Shown here piece by piece: positions 6,383-50,611 of a stretch of 64,000 bases of DNA. A program made the translations under genes and the position numbers. Location: assembly GCA_965221955.1 (NCBI GenBank), contig CBDCTA010000022.1, positions 32,001 through 96,000 on the forward strand. Reading direction: 5' to 3'. Every line of letters begins with the position of its first letter. Position 1 is the first letter of the stretch. The notes under the pieces are model-generated. The model saw only the letters and a list, made by a program, of their open reading frames with translations, made no database searches and was not told where the DNA came from. Source of the stretch: Gammaproteobacteria bacterium (lineage in GTDB: Bacteria; Pseudomonadota; Gammaproteobacteria; UBA4575).

Positions 6383-7405
6383 TTAAACACTCCAGTTTTG
6401 TAAAACGATTTTACCAATCGTATGTCGCCCTTCAATTTCAGCATGTGCAGCTTTTAAATTTGCAGCATTAATTGGTTCTAGTACTTTATTTGTTGTCGTT
6501 TTAATCGTGCCGGCATCTACAAGTTCAGCTACACGATTTAATATATTATGTTGTTCAATCATATCATCAGTTTCATACATAGAACGTGTGAACATGAACT
6601 CCCATGAGAATGTAGCACTCTTACTCTTCAATGCACCTAAATCTACATCACCCGCAGTTTCTACGATGGAACAAATTTTACCTTGTGGCTTAATCACGGT
6701 AGCGATCGATTGCCAATGCTCATCCGTATCATTGAAACATAAAACATAATCGTATCCTTCTATACTTAGTTCCTGAACCTGCTCGGGAATATCAAGATAA
6801 TGATTGATGATATGATCCACACCTAAATCTTTACACCATTTTTTCGACTCGGGACGTGAAGCGGTAACTGTGATAGAAAGTTTTGTCAGTTGTTTGGCAA
6901 ATTGAGTAGCTACAGAGCCCACCCCTCCTGCACCACCTATAATGAGTAATTCCTTGCCTGCATCTTCATTACCTTGGCTAATTTCCAAACGATCAAACAT
7001 TGACTCCCATGCCGTAATACTGGTCAGCGGCATGGCAGCAGCTTGCGCAAAATCTAAGGACTTCGGTTTATTACCTACAATGCGCTCATCCACAATATGA
7101 AATTCGCTATTGCATCCAGGCTGTATAAAACTACCCGCATAAAAAACCTCATCACCTGCTTTAAACAGAGTGACATCAGGCCCAACTGCTTCAACCACCC
7201 CCGCAGCATCCCAGCCCAAAATTCTTGGACTTTCCTCAACCTTATCCTGTGGTGCCCGCATTTTTGTATCGACCGGATTCACCGCAACGGCGCGCACAGC
7301 AACCAATAACTCTTGCCCTTGTGGGCTGGGTTGGTCGATCTCAACATCAACCAAAGAATCCGGTGCATCAATAGGAAGGTATTTATATAAGCCAACTGCT
7401 TTCAA
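6383..7405 (-). CDS. Zinc-type alcohol dehydrogenase-like / NADPH:quinone reductase family protein
   Basis: AVNPVDTK, LGWDAAG, IIGGAGGVGS and WEFMFTRS motifs. Confidence 0.92.
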   Translation of the reverse strand: MKAVGLYKYLPIDAPDSLVDVEIDQPSPQGQELLVAVRAVAVNPVDTKMRAPQDKVEESPRILGWDAAGVVEAVGPDVTLFKAGDEVFYAGSFIQPGCNSEFHIVDERIVGNKPKSLDFAQAAAMPLTSITAWESMFDRLEISQGNEDAGKELLIIGGAGGVGSVATQFAKQLTKLSITVTASRPESKKWCKDLGVDHIINHYLDIPEQVQELSIEGYDYVLCFNDTDEHWQSIATVIKPQGKICSIVETAGDVDLGALKSKSATFSWEFMFTRSMYETDDMIEQHNILNRVAELVDAGTIKTTTNKVLEPINAANLKAAHAEIEGRHTIGKIVLQNWSV

Positions 7406-7519
7406 GATTGGTCTCCAGGTTATTTATGTAAGTGTGTTTACGGCAGATCCGTATTATTCCATATAAATCGCGTCTATCGTGCTGACAGAATACTTTTTAA
7501 CCATTAAATTAATATTATA

Positions 7520-7579
7520 GTGAGCGCAGGGATGCGCGAATATAAGGTCCATCAGGGATGATGCAACAGAGTAAAGTTA
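7520..7579 (+). repeat. 60-bp double-hairpin repeat, copy R1
   Basis: GTGAGCGCAGGGATGCGCGAATATAAGGTCCATCAGGGATGATGCAACAGAGTAAAGTTA aligns without gaps to 8690-8749 (-), 9419-9478 (-) and 13729-13788 (+). Confidence 0.9.
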
Positions 7580-7628
7580 AATATACTCAAAAAATGAACA
7601 ATTTTAAAAGTCCTAACCTGGTCTCAAA

Positions 7629-7658
7629 AATGACCGCTTTTGGCCAATAGCGGTCATT
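7629..7658. repeat. 30-bp dyad site S1 (putative recombination site)
   Basis: AATGACCGCTTT-TGGCCA-ATAGCGGTCATT; contains the TGA stop of 7654..8064. Confidence 0.85.
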
Positions 7659-8064
7659 CTTCATTCTCAACAATCTCTTCCGAGACACCCATTGTCCTAA
7701 TAAATAAAAGAAATATTACGATTGCTGCAAAACTTCGTGAAAATATTTGACCAAAACTAATAAACTCTGAAATAAATATGAGCAGCACCAATATGCAACT
7801 GGCTATAGACCAAATTGGCGCATAGTTAAGAATTTTCCATTTAGACCTATCTTCATTTATATCACTAAAATAGTGTATACATAATATCAACGCCAAGGAC
7901 ATGACTGTGATAATCACTAGACTAAAAACAGTTCTGTTACTTGATACAATAATGTAAATCCAAAGAGGGATAGAATAACTTATGCTTTTATAAAAATTTG
8001 TATCTACAAGTTCAGATATTTTTTGGCCTTTTTTGGTAAATAAAAACAAATCTTTAAAGTTCAT
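7654..8064 (-). CDS. Hypothetical membrane protein (cassette-like gene 1)
   Basis: 136 aa, about four hydrophobic segments, AT-rich, bounded by S1 and S2. Confidence 0.65.
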   Translation of the reverse strand: MNFKDLFLFTKKGQKISELVDTNFYKSISYSIPLWIYIIVSSNRTVFSLVIITVMSLALILCIHYFSDINEDRSKWKILNYAPIWSIASCILVLLIFISEFISFGQIFSRSFAAIVIFLLFIRTMGVSEEIVENEE

Positions 8065-8088
8065 TTTTCCATAGCGCCTGTAAAATAT

Positions 8089-8118
8089 TATGTCCGCTTT
8101 GGGTTGTTAGCAGACATT
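8089..8118. repeat. 30-bp dyad site S2
   Basis: TATGTCCGCTTT-GGGTTG-TTAGCAGACATT. Confidence 0.85.
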
Positions 8119-8171
8119 TTGAACGTTTGTTTTGAAGTTTCCAACCTGACTTCCCCTAAATTGATCTTAAT

Positions 8172-8201
8172 TTTGTCCGCTTTCGGCCAATAGCGGACAT
8201 T
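8172..8201. repeat. 30-bp dyad site S3
   Basis: TTTGTCCGCTTT-CGGCCA-ATAGCGGACATT; last base overlaps the TAA stop of 8201..8593. Confidence 0.85.
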
Positions 8202-8593
8202 TAATTACTTAATAAATCATCCATTTTATTCCAAGCTTCATTCTTAGAATAATTCTCCCTATCACATTTTTCAGCAGTGTTTTCATCAACCTCTAAATTA
8301 TCAATTAATTTATTTGTAAGACAAACTGGATCAATAACCTCTTTCCCTTTTTCTCTTTGATCTAAAACAAATTTAGATTCAACTGTAATGCAATGGTTAA
8401 TCGCCAGCATAAATGTTTCCTCACAGCTATTTTTAGACACTTCCCAACAAGCAAGCAGGTCATTATTTCCACATAATAATTCACTTATGTGAGTTTCATA
8501 AAATATTTGTGATTCACTTTTTTTGTCATCTGAACAAGAAGCTAGTAGAACTGCTGCAAAGATATAAATTAATATAATGAGATAGTTGGACAT
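8201..8593 (-). CDS. Hypothetical Cys-rich lipoprotein (cassette-like gene 2)
   Basis: LLASC lipobox plus six further Cys; AT-rich; bounded by S3 and S4. Confidence 0.7.
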   Translation of the reverse strand: MSNYLIILIYIFAAVLLASCSDDKKSESQIFYETHISELLCGNNDLLACWEVSKNSCEETFMLAINHCITVESKFVLDQREKGKEVIDPVCLTNKLIDNLEVDENTAEKCDRENYSKNEAWNKMDDLLSN

Positions 8594-8610
8594 AAATGTA
8601 TTACGGTGTG

Positions 8611-8640
8611 AATGTCCGCTTTGGGTCGTTAGCGGTCATT
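8611..8640. repeat. 30-bp dyad site S4
   Basis: AATGTCCGCTTT-GGGTCG-TTAGCGGTCATT. Confidence 0.88.
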
Positions 8641-8689
8641 TTAATGATCTGATTTGTATTACCCAACCTGCTCATTATTCAAGTCTATC

Positions 8690-8749
8690 TAACTTTAATC
8701 TGTTGCATCGTCCTTGATGAAACTCATATTCGCGCATCCATACGCTTAC
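8690..8749 (-). repeat. 60-bp double-hairpin repeat, copy R2
   Basis: Reverse complement matches R1 at 51/60 positions by hand count. Confidence 0.9.
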
Positions 8750-8750
8750 A

Positions 8751-8772
8751 CTTTGAGTTGTAAGCAGTCATG
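8751..8772. repeat. Partial dyad site S5 (left arm replaced by the R2 end)
   Basis: CTTT-GAGTTG-TAAGCAGTCATG retains the spacer and right arm. Confidence 0.6.
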
Positions 8773-8824
8773 CGAAGCTTATAACAGAGAACTAATGTAG
8801 ATACGTAATGTTATTATTTAGCTC

Positions 8825-9211
8825 TTATAATTGCTCTATCACTTTCTTTAGTTTTTCTTGCACTTGATTCGCAATATCCCCTAATTTAGCATTCTCAATC
8901 GCGCGCATAGAGGCAATTGGGTCTACAGCTGAAACTTCTATCTCGCCATCATTCGTTTCTTGAACAACTACGTTGCATGGCAACATAGTTCCTATTTTAT
9001 TTTCTGCTTGCAGTGCTTGATATGCAAACGGTGGGTTGCATGCACCTAAGATACGATAGTTTTTATAGTCAACGTCCAACTTCTTTTTCAAAGTTGCTTT
9101 TACATCAATGTCTGTTAACACACCAAATCCTTCTTTTTTCAACTCCTCCGTAACCTTTTCTACAGCTTCGTCGAATGGAATTTTCATTTTGGTACTAAAG
9201 TAATAGTTCAT
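8825..9211 (-). CDS. DUF302 family protein (cassette-like gene 3)
   Basis: GFGVLTDIDV, YRILGACNP and LPCNVVV motifs. Confidence 0.92.
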   Translation of the reverse strand: MNYYFSTKMKIPFDEAVEKVTEELKKEGFGVLTDIDVKATLKKKLDVDYKNYRILGACNPPFAYQALQAENKIGTMLPCNVVVQETNDGEIEVSAVDPIASMRAIENAKLGDIANQVQEKLKKVIEQL

Positions 9212-9242
9212 ATTATTCCTCTATTAAAGTAATTGTTTATGA

Positions 9243-9369
9243 AATGTCTGCTTTGGGCCGACAGGAATTTACTCCTCGGCATTTGTTCCATGCATTGCCC
9301 TACCTCCTACATCCATGTAGTCGTGCAATTTCTGCACTTCCACCCTCCATGGTAGTCGTAGCAGTCATT
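9243..9369. repeat. Dyad site S6 interrupted by a 97-bp nested insertion
   Basis: Deleting 9262-9358 restores AATGTCTGCTTT-GGGCCG-ATAGCAGTCATT. Confidence 0.75.
9276..9323 (+). mobile_element. 48-bp MITE/REP-like mini-element nested in a related element
   Basis: Same length as, and similar to, the reverse complement of 50539-50586; both are flanked by TCC and TG. Confidence 0.65.
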
Positions 9370-9418
9370 TTAAAGATCTGATATGAAGCTCCCAACCTGC
9401 ACATTTTTTAATTATAAC

Positions 9419-9478
9419 TAACTTTAGTCAGTTGCATCGTCTCTGATGGTCCTCATATTCGTACATCCATACGCTCAC
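9419..9478 (-). repeat. 60-bp double-hairpin repeat, copy R3
   Basis: Direct repeat of R2; supplies the TGA stop of 9475..10515. Confidence 0.88.
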
Positions 9479-10515
9479 AACTTATCTAATTCAATCTCCG
9501 CAACAGGTATTCCATGATCAGACATAGTGCGATCGGCTTCTCTCGCTGTTAACGACCAATCAAACAAATGATCATTAAATATATGTTGGTAGGTTACTTT
9601 TCCAATACGTTTGGAGTTGCGATGATAAAACTCTTGCGATACTAGAATATGGTCCAACACATCACGATTTCCTCGATGTATATGTGTATAACCAAAGTCT
9701 TTTAAATCTTGACGTGTTTGAATGGTATTCGTGCTATACAACAGCACATCCCAATACATCCGTTTTATTTTAGTTGGCCAACGAAAATGAGGCGCTTGGC
9801 CAGCAATTATTTGAGTACTTGTGCTTTCGACAATGTCATTCAAGTCTCCAAGGACAATGAGTGGTTGTTGGTTATCTTTTATATCTTCAACAACTTTAGC
9901 ACGTAATGCTGTCGCTTCTAAGCTACGAATGAGTTGTGCACGTAAAGAGCCCAGTGCACGGTGTATGGGGTTTTCTCGATCTTCACTTTCTTTATAAATC
10001 GGACGTTTTGATTTTAAATGTGCGACATAAACGACAATCTTGATATCTTCCTCAGGAATTAACACTTCTGCACGTAGCGGAGGACGTTCAAATTTTTCGA
10101 TAGGCACATCGATCAGTTGCTCTGTTCCATCCGGAGCTTTGCTAGGTATTTGAAAATCTGCAGTAGATGGAAATTTTTCGATGGATTCATGACGCAAAAT
10201 TTGAAAGCGTGTGGCCAAACCTACTTTTGGACGTAATGCTTTACCATCTTCTTCATTATTTTCACGCTCTGCACCTGGGGATAAAACTTGAGTGTGTTCC
10301 GGAAAATTTTTCGCTTTTCTTATTGCAGCCTCAAGACTTTCACTACTAAACACTTCTTGAAAACCGACAATATCAGGCTGCGCTTGATCCAGCATATGTG
10401 CAGTCCATTTAAGTTTTCGCTCATACTCCTGTTCTGTAAAGGGAGGTAACTCGTAGTAGCCAACCTGCGGCCGCACTAAATTAAGGAGATTAAAAGAAGA
10501 AACTCGAAATTCCAT
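9475..10515 (-). CDS. Endonuclease/exonuclease/phosphatase (EEP) family protein
   Basis: SFNLLNL, VGFQEV, HLKSK, GDLND, LDHILVS and SDHG motifs. Confidence 0.9.
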   Translation of the reverse strand: MEFRVSSFNLLNLVRPQVGYYELPPFTEQEYERKLKWTAHMLDQAQPDIVGFQEVFSSESLEAAIRKAKNFPEHTQVLSPGAERENNEEDGKALRPKVGLATRFQILRHESIEKFPSTADFQIPSKAPDGTEQLIDVPIEKFERPPLRAEVLIPEEDIKIVVYVAHLKSKRPIYKESEDRENPIHRALGSLRAQLIRSLEATALRAKVVEDIKDNQQPLIVLGDLNDIVESTSTQIIAGQAPHFRWPTKIKRMYWDVLLYSTNTIQTRQDLKDFGYTHIHRGNRDVLDHILVSQEFYHRNSKRIGKVTYQHIFNDHLFDWSLTAREADRTMSDHGIPVAEIELDKL

Positions 10516-13732: not shown

Positions 13733-13788
13733 GCATAGGGACATGCGAATATGAGTTACAACAGGGATGTTGTATCAGGTTAGAGTTA
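13729..13788 (+). repeat. 60-bp double-hairpin repeat, copy R4
   Basis: Aligns without gaps to R1; supplies the TGA stop of ppsR. Confidence 0.8.
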
Positions 13789-13800
13789 GGGAATTTTAAA

Positions 13801-13833
13801 AACGTCCGCCGCTTTCTGTGAATAGCAGTCTTT
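13801..13833. repeat. Degenerate dyad site S7
   Basis: AACGT(CCG)CCGCTTT-CTGTGA-ATAGCAGTCTTT, followed by the shared linker motif. Confidence 0.6.
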
Positions 13834-13902
13834 ATTGAATATTCTTAAATTTGAAATCCCCAACTTGAACTTAGTCAAACCACCAAACTTTAATCTGTTA
13901 CT

Positions 13903-14211
13903 TCATCCATGCTGCACTTCATATTCAGGCATCTCAACGATTTGGCCTTTCCTATGCAAAAAAATTGCACATGCGACGCGAAGAAAAGAAGTAAAGTTTT
14001 GCACATCTTTATGTGTATCTAAGATTTCATCATAAAGTACGTTAATAAATTGCGGCACAGTTTGATTTTCTTCTTCAGCCATTTGATCAAGTATTTCCCA
14101 AAACTCATTTTCTAGCCGAATACTTGTAACGCAACCTTGAATGCGAATAGACCTGCATTCACTGTCGTAACGATCTGGTTGTGTTCCTGTATAAATATTA
14201 CACATAGGCAA
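13903..14211 (-). CDS. Ribbon-helix-helix (RHH_4-type) domain protein
   Basis: RSIRIQGCVTSIRLENEFWEIL ... NFTSFLRVAC pattern. Confidence 0.85.
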   Translation of the reverse strand: MPMCNIYTGTQPDRYDSECRSIRIQGCVTSIRLENEFWEILDQMAEEENQTVPQFINVLYDEILDTHKDVQNFTSFLRVACAIFLHRKGQIVEMPEYEVQHG

Positions 14212-31641: not shown

Positions 31642-32190
31642 TTAGATTTTTCCGTCTAATCCCATCTGATAATACTTATGTGTAATCTCTTCTTGGTTTT
31701 CTAGTAACCAATCTATATTAGGTTCGTTATTCATCGCTTTATGAACCGCGCTGGCCATTGCCTTACGGTGAATATCAAACAGAACTTTATGATCTAAATC
31801 ATCTGCTTTAGAAACCATAGGATTTAACCAAACTGAAACGATAATACCAATATCATTAACCTTATCTTTTGGAATATCACCCGCACGCACAGCGTCTAAT
31901 ACACCATTAGCGATCGCACCTTGTACCGTACCCATTAAAATATTGGTATAGCGTTCATCTTTAACCGTTACTTTGCTAACCATTAACGTAGCAGGACGCA
32001 CTTGAATATCTGTATTCATAATGGCAAGAACACGTGAATGACCTTTTACTTGATCACCCAGCAAAGTTGCAAACGCAGTGCCAACTGGACCATCCAGCTC
32101 ACCGATCACCACTTCTGGTTCTGCTGCCGTTCCTGGAGGTCCACCTGCAACGAGTGATTCGCCTACCCTCATAACTATTCTCTCTGACAT
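31642..32190 (-). CDS. fae: Formaldehyde-activating enzyme family protein (divergent Fae)
   Basis: VGESLV, GPVGTAFA, KVTVK, QGAIANGVLDAV..G.IPK and EPNIDWLL patterns. Confidence 0.85.
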   Translation of the reverse strand: MSERIVMRVGESLVAGGPPGTAAEPEVVIGELDGPVGTAFATLLGDQVKGHSRVLAIMNTDIQVRPATLMVSKVTVKDERYTNILMGTVQGAIANGVLDAVRAGDIPKDKVNDIGIIVSVWLNPMVSKADDLDHKVLFDIHRKAMASAVHKAMNNEPNIDWLLENQEEITHKYYQMGLDGKI

Positions 32191-44265: not shown

Positions 44266-46235
44266 TAGAATAGTTTTAGTTTGTCTTTAATGGACTTCCC
44301 TAAACCTTCTCCTAACTTTTCAGTGATTTCTTCGTCAATTTTTTCATCGATTTTTTCTTGTAGTTCTTCTTTCTTTTCGGCAATTTTTTCAGCTTGTGCA
44401 CACTTTAACGCAGCTGTGACATCTACACCGTAACTTAACTTTTCAAACGGTCCCTTTATGGAAACCGGCACTCCGCATTTATCAGGCTCTTCAGACAAGC
44501 CAATCTCAATATCGTAGTCGGTTTCGGATTTTGCAATGTCCACTTGTCCTTTCCCTTTTGCATGAATCAAAGGTGTGTTGAGTGTGAAATCTTTATTGTC
44601 TGATAACCCATTGGTAACATTAAATGTACCAAATAATTTATCAAATACTAATTCTTCTCCTGTGGGTTTAGGGTCGCGGCCTTTCAACAATGCAGCGGCT
44701 TTTTCTACATTGGCCGCCAATTTTGCATCACGCAAAGCGCCATTGGCTGCGTTTAACTTCACTTGTCCATCTAATGCGCGTTTGAGGTCGGCAACAGAAT
44801 TTCCTGTGGTATTCACATTTAATGAGAGATTACTCAGGCCACGAATATAAGCCTGCTCTTCCCCTAAGAAATCAATACTGAGCTTATCGATTGCGACATT
44901 TGCAATATCGGTTGCGAGTGCATATTTAGGCGTATCGCCACGCACATCCACACTGGCCTTGCCCTTCATCGAACCATCATAAAGATTCATGGACATAGGT
45001 GTAATTTGCAACAAGCCTCCCTTTGCCGTTACAGTAGCTTTCACATTAGTCATGGTCATACCAGAAACAATCAATTTCCCCACTGCAACATCTCCATTCA
45101 CCCGCATATCACGAAGCGTTTTCGTAGGTAATTCAATCGGCTCATTTTCATCTGCCGGGGTACTCTCGGCTTTCTCTTCTGCACTCGAGGTGGGTAATAA
45201 TTTATCCAGATCTAATAACTCTGAAGCTAATGAAAACTTAACATTGGGTTTACTAAACGATTGTACCGATGCATTACCAGTGAGCTGAGAATCCACCATC
45301 GACAACACCAGTGAAGAAAGACTTAAGGCTTCATTGGCAATATCTGCATCAATATTGGTTTGCATGTCTACCTCTAACTTGCCTTCTGGAAACGCATCGC
45401 CGGTGCCTGCAATCTTTATCTTTGTGTCTTGCATGGCATACTTTTGCGTTGCAAAGTTGCCACTTACATTTGAAGTTAGAGCTAAATCCATGGCGCCATT
45501 AGGAAAAGAATCGCCCGTTGAATGTAAATCTACATTTAGACCGTTTAACTTTAACGTTTGGGCTTTAGAATCAAACAATGCTTTTGATGCAATGACTAAA
45601 CTTGCATCCATTACAGGAGCAGCATTTTTTAAGTTTAAATCCATTTTTACATCGGTTTCTTTTCCATCTCCTAATTCGCCAGTGATTAAATTAAAAGGAG
45701 CAATTTGAACTTTGGTGCCTGCTTGCGCATCATGCCACGACAATTCAGCATCTGTAATTTCAATACCATTTACCACCACTTCTATATCAGGTGAAGTTGA
45801 ACTTTCTTCTTTCGGGGCTGCTTCTGTTTTTTCTTCAGGAATTAAGTCATCCCAATTGGAAACACCTTGTGCATTTTTTTGTAAATTAGCTTTTAAGCCA
45901 TGCAATTTAATTTTAGAAGCATGCACTTGCTTTTTTAACAGTGGTAACAATTCAACATGAACATCTACTTCTTCTACACTTACCATGGGTTGATCACCAA
46001 ACCCTGCAGCATTTCCGAAAGAGGTGCTGCCTAAACTAATCCCTAAGCGAGGCATCCAGCTATTTTTTATATCGCCTGTAATCACAAGGTCGCGGCCAGT
46101 TTTTTCTTTTGCAACCGCCATGATTTGTTCTTTGTAATTATTCAGATCTAAAGTAGATAAAAAGAATCCCGCAACTCCCACCACAATTAAGACCAATAAA
46201 ACGATTCCAATGATGAGATATTTAAGTGCTTTCAT
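44265..46235 (-). CDS. AsmA family protein
   Basis: N-terminal TM helix, DLNNYKEQI..TGRDL.I.G, beta-rich repeats; upstream of mutY. Confidence 0.88.
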   Translation of the reverse strand: MKALKYLIIGIVLLVLIVVGVAGFFLSTLDLNNYKEQIMAVAKEKTGRDLVITGDIKNSWMPRLGISLGSTSFGNAAGFGDQPMVSVEEVDVHVELLPLLKKQVHASKIKLHGLKANLQKNAQGVSNWDDLIPEEKTEAAPKEESSTSPDIEVVVNGIEITDAELSWHDAQAGTKVQIAPFNLITGELGDGKETDVKMDLNLKNAAPVMDASLVIASKALFDSKAQTLKLNGLNVDLHSTGDSFPNGAMDLALTSNVSGNFATQKYAMQDTKIKIAGTGDAFPEGKLEVDMQTNIDADIANEALSLSSLVLSMVDSQLTGNASVQSFSKPNVKFSLASELLDLDKLLPTSSAEEKAESTPADENEPIELPTKTLRDMRVNGDVAVGKLIVSGMTMTNVKATVTAKGGLLQITPMSMNLYDGSMKGKASVDVRGDTPKYALATDIANVAIDKLSIDFLGEEQAYIRGLSNLSLNVNTTGNSVADLKRALDGQVKLNAANGALRDAKLAANVEKAAALLKGRDPKPTGEELVFDKLFGTFNVTNGLSDNKDFTLNTPLIHAKGKGQVDIAKSETDYDIEIGLSEEPDKCGVPVSIKGPFEKLSYGVDVTAALKCAQAEKIAEKKEELQEKIDEKIDEEITEKLGEGLGKSIKDKLKLF

Positions 46236-50486: not shown

Positions 50487-50538
50487 GGCTATTTTTAAGA
50501 AATTTATTTGCAGGGACGTAATGTATGCCGGTAACTCA

Positions 50539-50586
50539 CGACTGCATGGATGCAGGAGGTAGAGCGACGCAAGAAGCCAGAGTCGA
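50539..50586 (-). mobile_element. 48-bp mini-element inserted within a CCGGTAAC/GTTACCGG hairpin
   Basis: Homologous to 9276-9323; host stem arms at 50528-50535 and 50594-50601. Confidence 0.65.
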
Positions 50587-50611
50587 GGATACGGTTACCG
50601 GTACAGCTTTA

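Follow-up and report, generated by a model that had tools for sequence, protein, structure and literature searches.

Dyad sites bracketing single genes in a gammaproteobacterial genome: candidate boundaries of mobile, integron-like cassettes

The stretch of DNA considered here, called the window throughout, consists of 64,000 nucleotides (nt) from a gammaproteobacterium of the lineage UBA4575 (positions 32,001 to 96,000 of contig CBDCTA010000022.1, here C22), and positions without a contig name are counted from its first letter. The genome assembly (G000 where it has to be told apart from its relatives) has 29 contigs, 2.69 Mb and 38.6% GC, with an estimated completeness of 96.6% and an estimated contamination of 4.3%. 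Between an ADH gene and an EEP gene the window carries an array of 30-bp sites with dyad symmetry, namely four full dyads, one partial and one interrupted, placed around three co-oriented small genes. A first-pass annotation of the window had proposed that this is an array of gene cassettes analogous to an integron and driven in trans. Here the array is described, the same sites are followed through the genome, its relatives and more distant bacteria, and the proposal is weighed against other explanations.

The array between the ADH and EEP genes

The first-pass annotation listed full copies of the site at 7629, 8089, 8172 and 8611. All four are found on the plus strand with 0-2 mismatches to its pattern. 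The window has six matches counting both strands, as against a mean of 0.00 and a maximum of 0 in 100 dinucleotide-preserving shuffles. The partial copy listed at 8751 is also real: 8751-8771 (CTTTGAGTTGTAAGCAGTCAT) corresponds to positions 9-29 of an A-type site (the two types, A and B, are defined below) and lacks the left arm. So is the interrupted copy listed at 9243, in which the left arm and TTTGGG (9243-9257) are followed by a 98-nt insert (9258-9355) and then by TCGTAGCAGTCATT (9356-9369).

On the ADH side the array is bounded by a left tail (7520..7628, minus strand), recognised by repeat comparison as an inverted copy of a tail of about 110 nt. The first dyad (7629..7658, plus strand, no mismatch to the pattern) has a B-like centre (TTTTGGCCAATA) and overlaps the stop codon of the first cassette gene, open reading frame (ORF) 1 (7654..8064, minus strand), which encodes a predicted membrane protein of 136 amino acids (aa). 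The second dyad, of A type (8089..8118, plus strand), lies 24 nt upstream of the ORF1 start, and a 53-nt linker (8119..8171, minus strand) joins it to the third, of B type (8172..8201, plus strand), to form a conserved A-linker-B unit; both dyads match the pattern and the consensus. The B dyad touches the stop codon of the second cassette gene, ORF2 (8201..8593, minus strand), which encodes a predicted lipoprotein of 130 aa with an LLASC lipobox recognised by eye. The fourth dyad (8611..8640, plus strand, no mismatch) is the same as the A consensus and stands 17 nt upstream of the ORF2 start. The close fit of the first two genes to their sites, with stops within or touching the site and starts 24 and 17 nt from the next one, is therefore as the first-pass annotation had it.

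A full-length tail follows (8641..8749, plus strand, from repeat comparison), then the partial dyad (8751..8771, plus strand) and the third cassette gene (8825..9211, minus strand), which encodes a DUF302 protein of 128 aa (PF03625, E = 2.5e-27). Beyond it there is a long-form A dyad (9243..9369, plus strand), the arms of which are parted at the centre by the 98-nt insert, a hairpin-forming sequence repeated elsewhere in the genome. A right tail (9370..9479, plus strand) closes the array and ends at the stop codon of the EEP gene. The sites are thus the inner ends of longer repeats, with tails of about 110 nt at 7520-7628, 8641-8749 and 9370-9479. Positions 7520-7659 and 8610-8749 form an inverted pair of 140 nt that is 74% complementary, 7520-7600 (C22:39520-39600) aligns in reverse, at 81%, with positions 29-109 of the tail, and 8630-8750 and 9359-9479 are direct repeats at 81%. 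An Rfam scan of 7300-9700, with E up to 1, gave two matches at chance level and no known RNA family.

A Pfam search found no family for either ORF1 or ORF2. Among 5.8 billion proteins ORF1 has three full-length homologues, at 88, 68 and 49% identity, and ORF2 has one, of 128 aa and 54% identity. No homologue of ORF2 was found in 55 other genomes of the family, and peptide patterns run against the GTDB species genomes likewise gave no relative. Because these full-length homologues exist, rare as they are, both ORFs are taken as real genes.

Sites and modules across the genome

Sites were counted as sequences within 7 mismatches of two consensus forms, A (AATGTCCGCTTTGGGTCGTTAGCGGTCATT) and B (TATGTCTGCTTTCGGCCAATAGCGGACATT). 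There are 179 in the genome, 162 of them in 31 clusters and 17 single; these counts, like those of cassettes, include some strain duplicates. The clusters cover 71 kb and have a GC content of 36.1%, against 38.6% for the genome.

The two subtypes have fixed places. Read on the site strand, a module has the order tail'-B-gene-A-tail, where tail' is the inverted copy and the gene is on the opposite strand, and an array has the order tail'-B-gene-A-linker-B-gene-A-...-tail. Where both sites of a module have the same polarity, the largest ORF runs opposite to the sites in 79 of 89 cases. It typically occupies about 90% of the gap, with its start 10-45 nt from A and its stop between -4 and +30 nt of B. 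The sites flanking one gene are in direct orientation, as judged by their centres. The arms that face the gene (the left arm of A and the right arm of B) are canonical and mutually complementary, and those that face the tails (A-right and B-left) are degenerate.

The tail at 8641..8749 has 45 matches in the genome, mostly at array edges. Within arrays the tails are cut down to a short linker, which in most units is 29, 43 or 53 nt long and consists of the first part of the tail and the first part of the inverted tail, so that neighbouring genes lie roughly 89-113 nt apart. There are 32 A-linker-B units, of which most measure 89, 101-103 or 112-113 nt and most contain the conserved TTCCAACC. 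Each dyad makes a stem of 9-10 bp, and the A-linker-B unit folds either as one long hairpin or as two (z about -4). By eye, A position 24 and B position 7 of the same unit showed no clear pattern of covariation. A model in which empty sites combine a B centre with an A-type right arm fits some of the single sites and not others.

Read from ORF translations, the cassettes across the genome encode small membrane proteins and lipoproteins, and many are orphan genes. GNAT-like, OsmC-like, Hsp20-like, globin-like, PPK2-like and peptidase-like products were also recognised by reading, Pfam having been run on the three window genes only.

Beside the A dyad, the gene strand carries a TTGGAA-like hexamer, 17 nt, and a TAAAAT-like hexamer that overlaps the outer end of the dyad. 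A TTGnnn and a TAnnnT at this fixed place occur at 20 of 84 A sites and at 0 of 69 B sites, and the hexamer TTGG[AG][AT] occurs at 36 of the 84 A sites. In the window, the sequence of the 53-nt linker reads TTGGAA (8144..8139), a 17-nt spacer and CAAAAT (8121..8116) on the gene strand; that of the tail at 8641..8749 reads TTGGGT (8666..8661), 17 nt and TAAAAT (8643..8638); and the right tail at 9370..9479 has TTGGGA, 17 nt and TAAAAT directed at the DUF302 gene, this last copy (9395..9367, minus strand) being flagged also by a generic promoter scan. The motif resembles a sigma-70 promoter and may serve the gene of the downstream cassette.

Most dyads do not look like simple terminators, a possibility that the first-pass annotation had raised. 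The region 7400-9600 has 3 terminator-like matches, against 1.1 expected. In the array a run of T on the gene strand is found only with the dyad at 7629-7658 (TTTTT, flagged as terminator-like); most dyads have none, and on that strand the linkers after B are A-rich.

The 98-nt hairpin insert lies between the halves of an A-type dyad in 6 of 10 copies examined, two of those six being strain duplicates. It may represent a nested insertion directed at the loop of the dyad, or else a longer version of the dyad itself. Further copies of about 95-98 nt are present at C22:168244, C17:40251, C14:8483, C23:10651 and C3:28549, and there are also partial copies without a dyad, for example at 50537-50589 of the window, in another palindromic context.

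Turnover of cassettes between fixed flanks

Stretches that are near-identical (94-99.8%) are duplicated on different contigs (C14/C23, C10/C29, C11/C26, C19/C3, C24/C6, C12/C13, C1/C25 and C18/C8). The assembly therefore mixes at least two strains, in line with its contamination estimate, and this made comparisons between strains possible.

In C14 and C23 the flanks are 99.0-99.5% identical, and the interior measures 4.06 kb in C14 and 12.4 kb in C23, with only one module, of 1,492 bp, in common. In C14 an additional cassette of 1 kb is enclosed by two B dyads; C23 has a single dyad, to which the left and right parts of this pair correspond. In C10 and C29 the flanks are 98.7-99.7% identical, and the terminal dyads enclose 1.4 kb and 4.0 kb respectively, with different cassettes. 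Between species, the locus that lies between a permease-like gene and an RDD-like gene (the neighbour of xerD) is empty in G001 and G015, where 17-26 bp separate the flanks; G010 has an array of five dyads there, G014 and G011 have other content with one or two dyads, and G013 has 1.8 kb without dyads. Queries with cassette ORFs of C23 of at least 80 aa gave no match at this locus in any of the relatives. One cassette has a paralogue: the copies at C26:69641-70430 and on C5, in different arrays, have 85.6% identity over 780 nt. These alignments show that cassettes have been gained, lost and replaced while their flanks stayed in place.

The gap between the ADH and EEP genes measures 2,069 bp in this genome and contains dyads. 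It measures 144 bp in G003, 926 bp in G002, 1,044 bp in G010, 3,584 bp in G022 and 5,218 bp in G044, in each case without dyads. Since the inserts of the other species at this locus have no dyads, the strongest evidence for turnover comes from other loci of this genome. The idea in the first-pass annotation that gene content varies between fixed flanks is thus borne out at C14/C23, C10/C29 and the RDD/permease locus; at the ADH-EEP gap itself the content varies too, but in the relatives it does so without dyads.

Contig-level sequencing runs gave joints such as 7660>8610 and 8201>8611. These have sides of 18-34 nt, can be explained by other copies of the dyad, and are neutral on excision. The contigs of one run, X3, an independent marine metagenome, include none over ORF1, ORF2 and most of the DUF302 gene; the run has 37.5 million letters and is too shallow for inference on this point. 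Compared with 6900-10000 of the window, X3 differs at 1 position in 664 nt of the EEP gene and adjacent tail and at 21 positions in 419 nt of the ADH gene, which suggests that a mosaic relative may be present at this locus.

Position of the homology breaks

Every mapped boundary of a difference between strains or species coincides with a dyad, and the breaks can be placed within it. The right-hand break lies between dyad positions 20 and 25 in C14/C23, and after position 18 in the comparison of E. coli with Klebsiella described below. Among E. coli prophage variants, which have differing cargo beyond the dyad, the first variable base is dyad position 20. In the paralogous cassette of C26 and C5, homology begins near position 3 of the B dyad and stops near position 22 of the A dyad. 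Left-hand breaks fall at dyad positions 2-12. This pattern would be compatible with a 12-6-12 core site cut at the junction of spacer and arm, a fit rather than a proof.

One further comparison concerns the centre of the site. At C14:5856-5885 and C23:12284-12313 the same dyad has an identical left flank and a central 12 nt that is inverted, which suggests that the palindrome may be handled as a hairpin or cruciform in vivo.

Dyads in relatives, plasmids and prophages

The survey of relatives covered 41 genomes, of which 24 belong to the family, and a reversed control pattern of the site gave 0 matches. Dyads were found in 20 of the 41. At the level of the genus they are present in 13 of 14 other genomes, and at that of the family in 18 of 24. 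With a looser pattern for the arms, they were found in 22 of 401 Pseudomonadota genomes, mostly in 1-5 copies but with up to 16 in one genus, the reversed control being found in 2 of 401. The 28-nt core of the dyad is conserved across bacterial classes.

In enterobacteria, the dyad bounds cargo on several replicons. A two-gene module of 2,241 bp, found in a plasmid-borne E. coli prophage region, shares 99.87% identity from dyad to dyad with one on a Klebsiella plasmid, and it recurs from dyad to dyad on plasmids of E. coli, Citrobacter and Providencia. Of 5,426 complete E. coli genomes, 205 contain the module, and 642 have at least one of its ends. PADLOC gave no match for the two E. coli module proteins, and Pfam gave only sub-threshold hints of HEPN/RES-NTD and GNAT. 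In lambdoid prophages a dyad stands just after a DUF977 gene, and three variants have different cargo beyond it, one of them with further dyads. Among the cargoes after DUF977 are a pair of proteins of 320 and 333 aa with weak hints of HEPN/RES-NTD and GNAT, an AbiH-family protein together with a partner, and a regulator accompanied by an acetyltransferase; the first of these, the pair of 320 and 333 aa, is also found dyad to dyad on enterobacterial plasmids. In phage Evi both dyad ends enclose another cargo, of 1.4 kb. The loci with dyad-bounded cargo are L111, L115 and L113 (E. coli), L112 (Klebsiella), L116 (Citrobacter) and L117 (phage Evi).

Dyads also occur in 13 viral contigs of 54-61% GC, mostly near the ends, a position that may reflect no more than assembly breaks at repeats.

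Search for the recombinase

The window was said to contain no recombinase gene, and genome-wide searches for Phage_integrase, Resolvase, Y1_Tnp and Transposase_20 indeed gave no match inside it. In the whole assembly there was no match for Y1_Tnp (RAYT), Transposase_20 (IS110), rve, DDE_Tnp_1 or OrfB_IS605 (TnpB). With no transposase of these families in the genome, the dyads do not appear to be the ends of a known insertion sequence (IS), which had been the other caution of the first-pass annotation.

The tyrosine recombinases of this genome are XerD (two strain copies), XerC and a single integrase, whose open frame spans 437 aa. In G010, a complete genome, they are XerD, XerC and one integrase of 411 aa only. 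XerC and XerD are the only tyrosine recombinases common to the four site-bearing genomes checked, and a fifth genome, free of sites, has both as well. This genome has a dif-like site (ACTTCGCATAATATATATTATGTTAAAT) at C4:59807, and by eye the dyad arms match it at scattered bases at most.

Three other candidates for a driver were considered and dropped. Y1_Tnp is found in 4 of the 24 family genomes, one of them without sites, and is absent from the complete G010, G014 and G019, which have 93, 55 and 160 sites; RAYT was rejected, since it is missing from this genome and its occurrence in the family is unrelated to dyads. For the integron integrase the best score in this genome with TIGR02249 is 83 bits, which is XerD, against a cut-off of 265. 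IntI passes the cut-off in 6 of the 41 genomes and, within the family, in 2 of 24, namely G013 with 0 dyads and G015 with 104. The complete or near-complete genomes G001, G010, G014 and G019 have 49, 93, 55 and 160 dyads and no IntI, and around the true integron array of G015 there are no dyads within 16 kb. The integron integrase was rejected on these grounds. The third candidate, a large serine recombinase, belongs to a five-gene phage-like element outside the window (C26:85304-90595, locus L059:5305-10596), with one dyad about 3 kb away. The element encodes the recombinase (540 aa), a PHROG 11806 protein, a large terminase, a small conserved protein and a ParB-methyltransferase fusion, and homologues of all five genes are found in G010, G011 and G019, in the same or a rearranged order. 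This recombinase was set aside, as only 4 of the 41 genomes have it, no dyads flank it, and the borders of its island are not dyads.

In two unrelated contexts, an E. coli prophage (L113:8234-8836) and a high-GC viral contig (L057:1685-2287), a small tyrosine recombinase of 200 aa is encoded at a distance of 1-2 kb from dyads. The latter is FimB/FimE-like (NCBIfam tyrosine-type DNA invertase, E = 3e-44) and is 28% identical to the former. No small tyrosine recombinase of this type was found in G000.

Proposed function of the dyads

We consider it somewhat probable that the dyads are both boundaries and recombination sites of mobile single-gene cassettes, in a system analogous to integrons that has no IntI, no attC and no single platform. 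Each cassette would carry a promoter-like motif next to A, aimed at its own gene, and would end in a B dyad that follows the stop codon. With such a motif beside A, each cassette would be self-expressed. A site-specific enzyme acting in trans, or a conserved host factor, would exchange strands around positions 18-25, on the right-hand side of the dyad, a place compatible with a 12-6-12 core site. The cassette core of the first-pass proposal is supported by the comparative evidence; the tyrosine recombinase that was to act in trans is as conjectural as before.

Several observations weigh against this proposal. No cognate recombinase was found for the dyads in the searches described above, and the dyad arms are unlike the dif-like site of the genome, which argues against canonical XerCD binding. 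With 96.6% completeness and 29 contigs, a recombinase or an IS could be on an unassembled piece, IS copies often being unassembled. The breakpoints are not identical in the four informative comparisons (about 18-25 on the right and 2-12 on the left), each of which offers few informative bases. A near-identical repeat of 30 bp could support short-homology exchange of the RecA or phage Red/RecET type, with no site-specific enzyme. No excised circle or hybrid site was seen in the contig-level runs, the joints of which are ambiguous. The inserts of relatives at the ADH-EEP locus vary without dyads, so variability there needs none. Finally, the promoter is a consensus match only.

A wider form of the proposal can be put forward tentatively, and we regard it as clearly less probable than not. 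This is that the 30-bp dyad (arms ATGTCCGC ... GCGGACAT, with two types of centre) would be a universal linker for the exchange of genes and small modules across the Proteobacteria, in chromosomes, prophages and plasmids. Catalysis would be provided in trans by an unrecognised class of recombinase or by a housekeeping enzyme such as XerCD acting on a non-dif substrate, and in the uncultured lineage of the window the system would have expanded to occupy some 30 loci, with about 100 self-expressed cassettes in each genome.

Site-specific capture of single genes is known from textbooks through integrons; a second case, bound to plasmids, is that of pdif modules. If the cassette reading is correct, the dyads would represent a third type of cassette capture, in which the conserved site is distinct, insertion points on the chromosome are many, the cassettes are self-expressed and no dedicated integrase is encoded nearby, and such capture would have evolved more than once and would not be tied to IntI. 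Full-text searches of the literature, in main texts only, found no description of these sites. As the dyad family is present in E. coli prophages, enterobacterial plasmids and a sequenced phage, laboratory strains of E. coli are open to direct tests of the mechanism. In this uncultured marine lineage the dyads also mark accessory genes that vary between strains, about 100 in each genome, and give a sequence handle on the flexible gene pool in metagenomes.

Alternative explanations

The main alternative, which we think improbable though to be taken seriously, is that the dyads are selfish palindromes with tails, like the repetitive extragenic palindromes (REP), their mosaics (bacterial interspersed mosaic elements, BIME) and hairpin-forming doublets (REPIN), or like miniature inverted-repeat transposable elements (MITE). 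Differences in cassettes would then come from homologous or short-homology recombination (RecA, Red/RecET) with incoming DNA, and no dedicated enzyme would be needed. The arrangement tail'-dyad-tail resembles a MITE of about 200-250 bp with inverted ends, and the window holds an empty copy of it after a stop codon: the unit at 13733..13933, directly after a ppsR-like gene, consists of tail', one degenerate dyad and tail (C22:45729-45789 in reverse and 45849-45933 forward). Judged as MITEs, the units have inverted tails, with no target duplication that could be defined and no match in the genome for the transposase families named above. The A-linker-B units, with their hairpin folds, resemble REP doublets; like REPs, too, the dyads are short extragenic palindromes of two alternating subtypes, joined in doublets by short linkers and often found at gene ends. 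In the complete genome G019 dyad polarity follows the replichore, again as in REPs, at 79 of 97 listed places (160 dyads were counted), with dnaA at 585 kb, the dif-like site at 1.912 Mb and one discordant block at 1.63-1.80 Mb; this rule would fit either a bias in gene orientation or a strand-specific mechanism. Lambdoid-type phages commonly encode their own homologous recombinases, and the enterobacterial dyads sit in lambdoid prophages and in phage Evi. The failure of the genome searches to yield a recombinase for the dyads is also as expected on this view, and the nested hairpin insert appears to target dyad centres much as IS target REPs, which are described as known IS targets in PMC1525189.

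Set against this, 162 of the 179 sites are clustered around one-gene modules with strict polarity, and are not spread over intergenic space; such clustering at accessory genes is unlike REPs. The breakpoints are confined to the dyad of 30 bp, the tails and linkers being free of them although the tails are longer. RAYT is absent from this genome and from three complete, site-rich relatives, its scattered occurrence in the family including a genome without sites, and neither rve, DDE_Tnp_1, IS110 nor TnpB was matched in this genome. By eye, the dyad arms and consensus have no GTAG or CGTC head, and it is such a head that defines the two REP superfamilies in PMC3733652. Lastly, a 28-nt core kept across bacterial classes would be unusual for REPs, which are specific to lineages.

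Very unlikely, in our judgement, is a second alternative, that the arrays are integron relics: clusters of attC without integrase, in which the A-linker-B unit is an attC peculiar to the lineage and the integrase has been lost or is unassembled. The likeness to integron cassettes is considerable. In both, arrays consist of small, co-oriented and often orphan single genes with stop codons overlapping the site, and content turns over fast between fixed flanks. The A-linker-B unit, a composite of about 89-113 nt made of two simple sites with inverted arms, resembles attC in its conserved outer arms, its degenerate inner arms and its variable middle of discrete lengths. Integron attC cores have the form RYYYAAC ... 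GTTRRRY, and by eye the A dyad contains GTTAGCG at the junction of its centre and right arm (G|TTAGCG), which is 5/7 of GTTRRRY and is close to the breakpoints; integron integrases, moreover, do occur in the family (G013 and G015). On the other hand B has no GTT or AAC core, so that the RYYYAAC/GTTRRRY pair is lacking, and the direction of the gene relative to the GTT-bearing site is the reverse of that in integron cassettes. There are 31 clusters here instead of one platform with attI and Pc, and they are bounded by inverted tails and not by an integrase gene. Each cassette has two short dyads conserved in sequence, as against one attC conserved in structure, and appears to bring its own promoter. 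IntI is lacking here and in the four complete or near-complete genomes with 49-160 dyads; of the two family members that have it, one is free of dyads and the other, G015, has a true integron that does not use them. This last point, together with the difference of the arms from the dif-like site, agrees with the first-pass view that the sites are neither attC nor dif.

We give hardly any credence to the possibility that the dyads are att or cassette sites of the large serine recombinase in the five-gene element. A dyad of 30 bp does suit the dimer site of a serine recombinase, one stands about 3 kb from the element, and the recombinase is confined to genomes with sites (G000, G010, G011 and G019). 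By eye, several of the 13 dyad-bearing viral contigs have ORFs resembling the recombinase, terminase and ParB-methyltransferase of the element, and on L051 these lie between two dyads. The recombinase is absent, however, from 16 of the 20 site-bearing genomes searched, including the complete G001 and G014. The element is not flanked by dyads in G010, G011 or G019, and the island, compared with the strain variant in C11, ends at non-dyad sequence; the dyads at the ends of the viral contigs may be there only through assembly breaks at repeats.

Equally hard to credit is that the dyads are cis-acting elements of expression only (terminators, mRNA-stabilising hairpins or operators) with no part in gene movement: their stems of 9-10 bp, the TTTTT beside the dyad at 7629-7658 and the position of B dyads at stop codons would suit such a role, but most dyads have no T run, the terminator-like matches of the array (3 against 1.1) are few, all mapped strain and species boundaries coincide with dyads, and it fails to explain why the same dyad bounds a module in many replicons.

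Comparison with other mobile and repeated elements

The cassette reading also has to be set beside systems that share single features with it. The pdif modules of Acinetobacter plasmids have arm-spacer-arm sites of about 28-30 bp in alternating orientation, and are served in trans by a housekeeping recombinase of the host. The dyads resemble these and other Xer-dependent elements in bracketing genes module by module with sites of this size and form, and XerC/XerD are what the site-bearing genomes checked have in common. They differ in their arms, which are not those of the dif-like site, in the direct orientation of the sites flanking a gene, and in that the loci are chromosomal and numerous. 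As in IS200/IS605-type elements, dyad hairpins occur in direct orientation; unlike them, neither TnpA nor TnpB is present in this genome.

In Neisseria, the intergenic mosaic elements with dRS3 and the Correia elements are palindromic repeats that bracket variable, mostly non-coding units. Their repeats bracket variable units in arrays, as the dyads do, and also serve as targets of integration and carry promoter-like elements, as the dyads may; the sequence is different, and here each bracketed unit is a gene. The morons of lambdoid phages are single genes or pairs with their own promoter, located between conserved modules. The E. coli dyad after the DUF977 gene is at such a variable spot. Unlike morons, the cargo is bounded on both sides by the 30-bp dyad, which also forms long chromosomal arrays outside prophages.

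Other observations

The dif-like site at C4:59807, the only one found in the assembly, is 4-6 kb from a cluster of five dyads (C4:63651-65818), and in G019 the dif-like site at 1,911,913 is 15 kb from the nearest listed dyad; both may be chance. The first 1,926 nt of the contig that contains the window (C22:1-1926) form a perfect tandem repeat with a period of 339 bp, which is 100% identical at offsets of 339, 678 and 1017.

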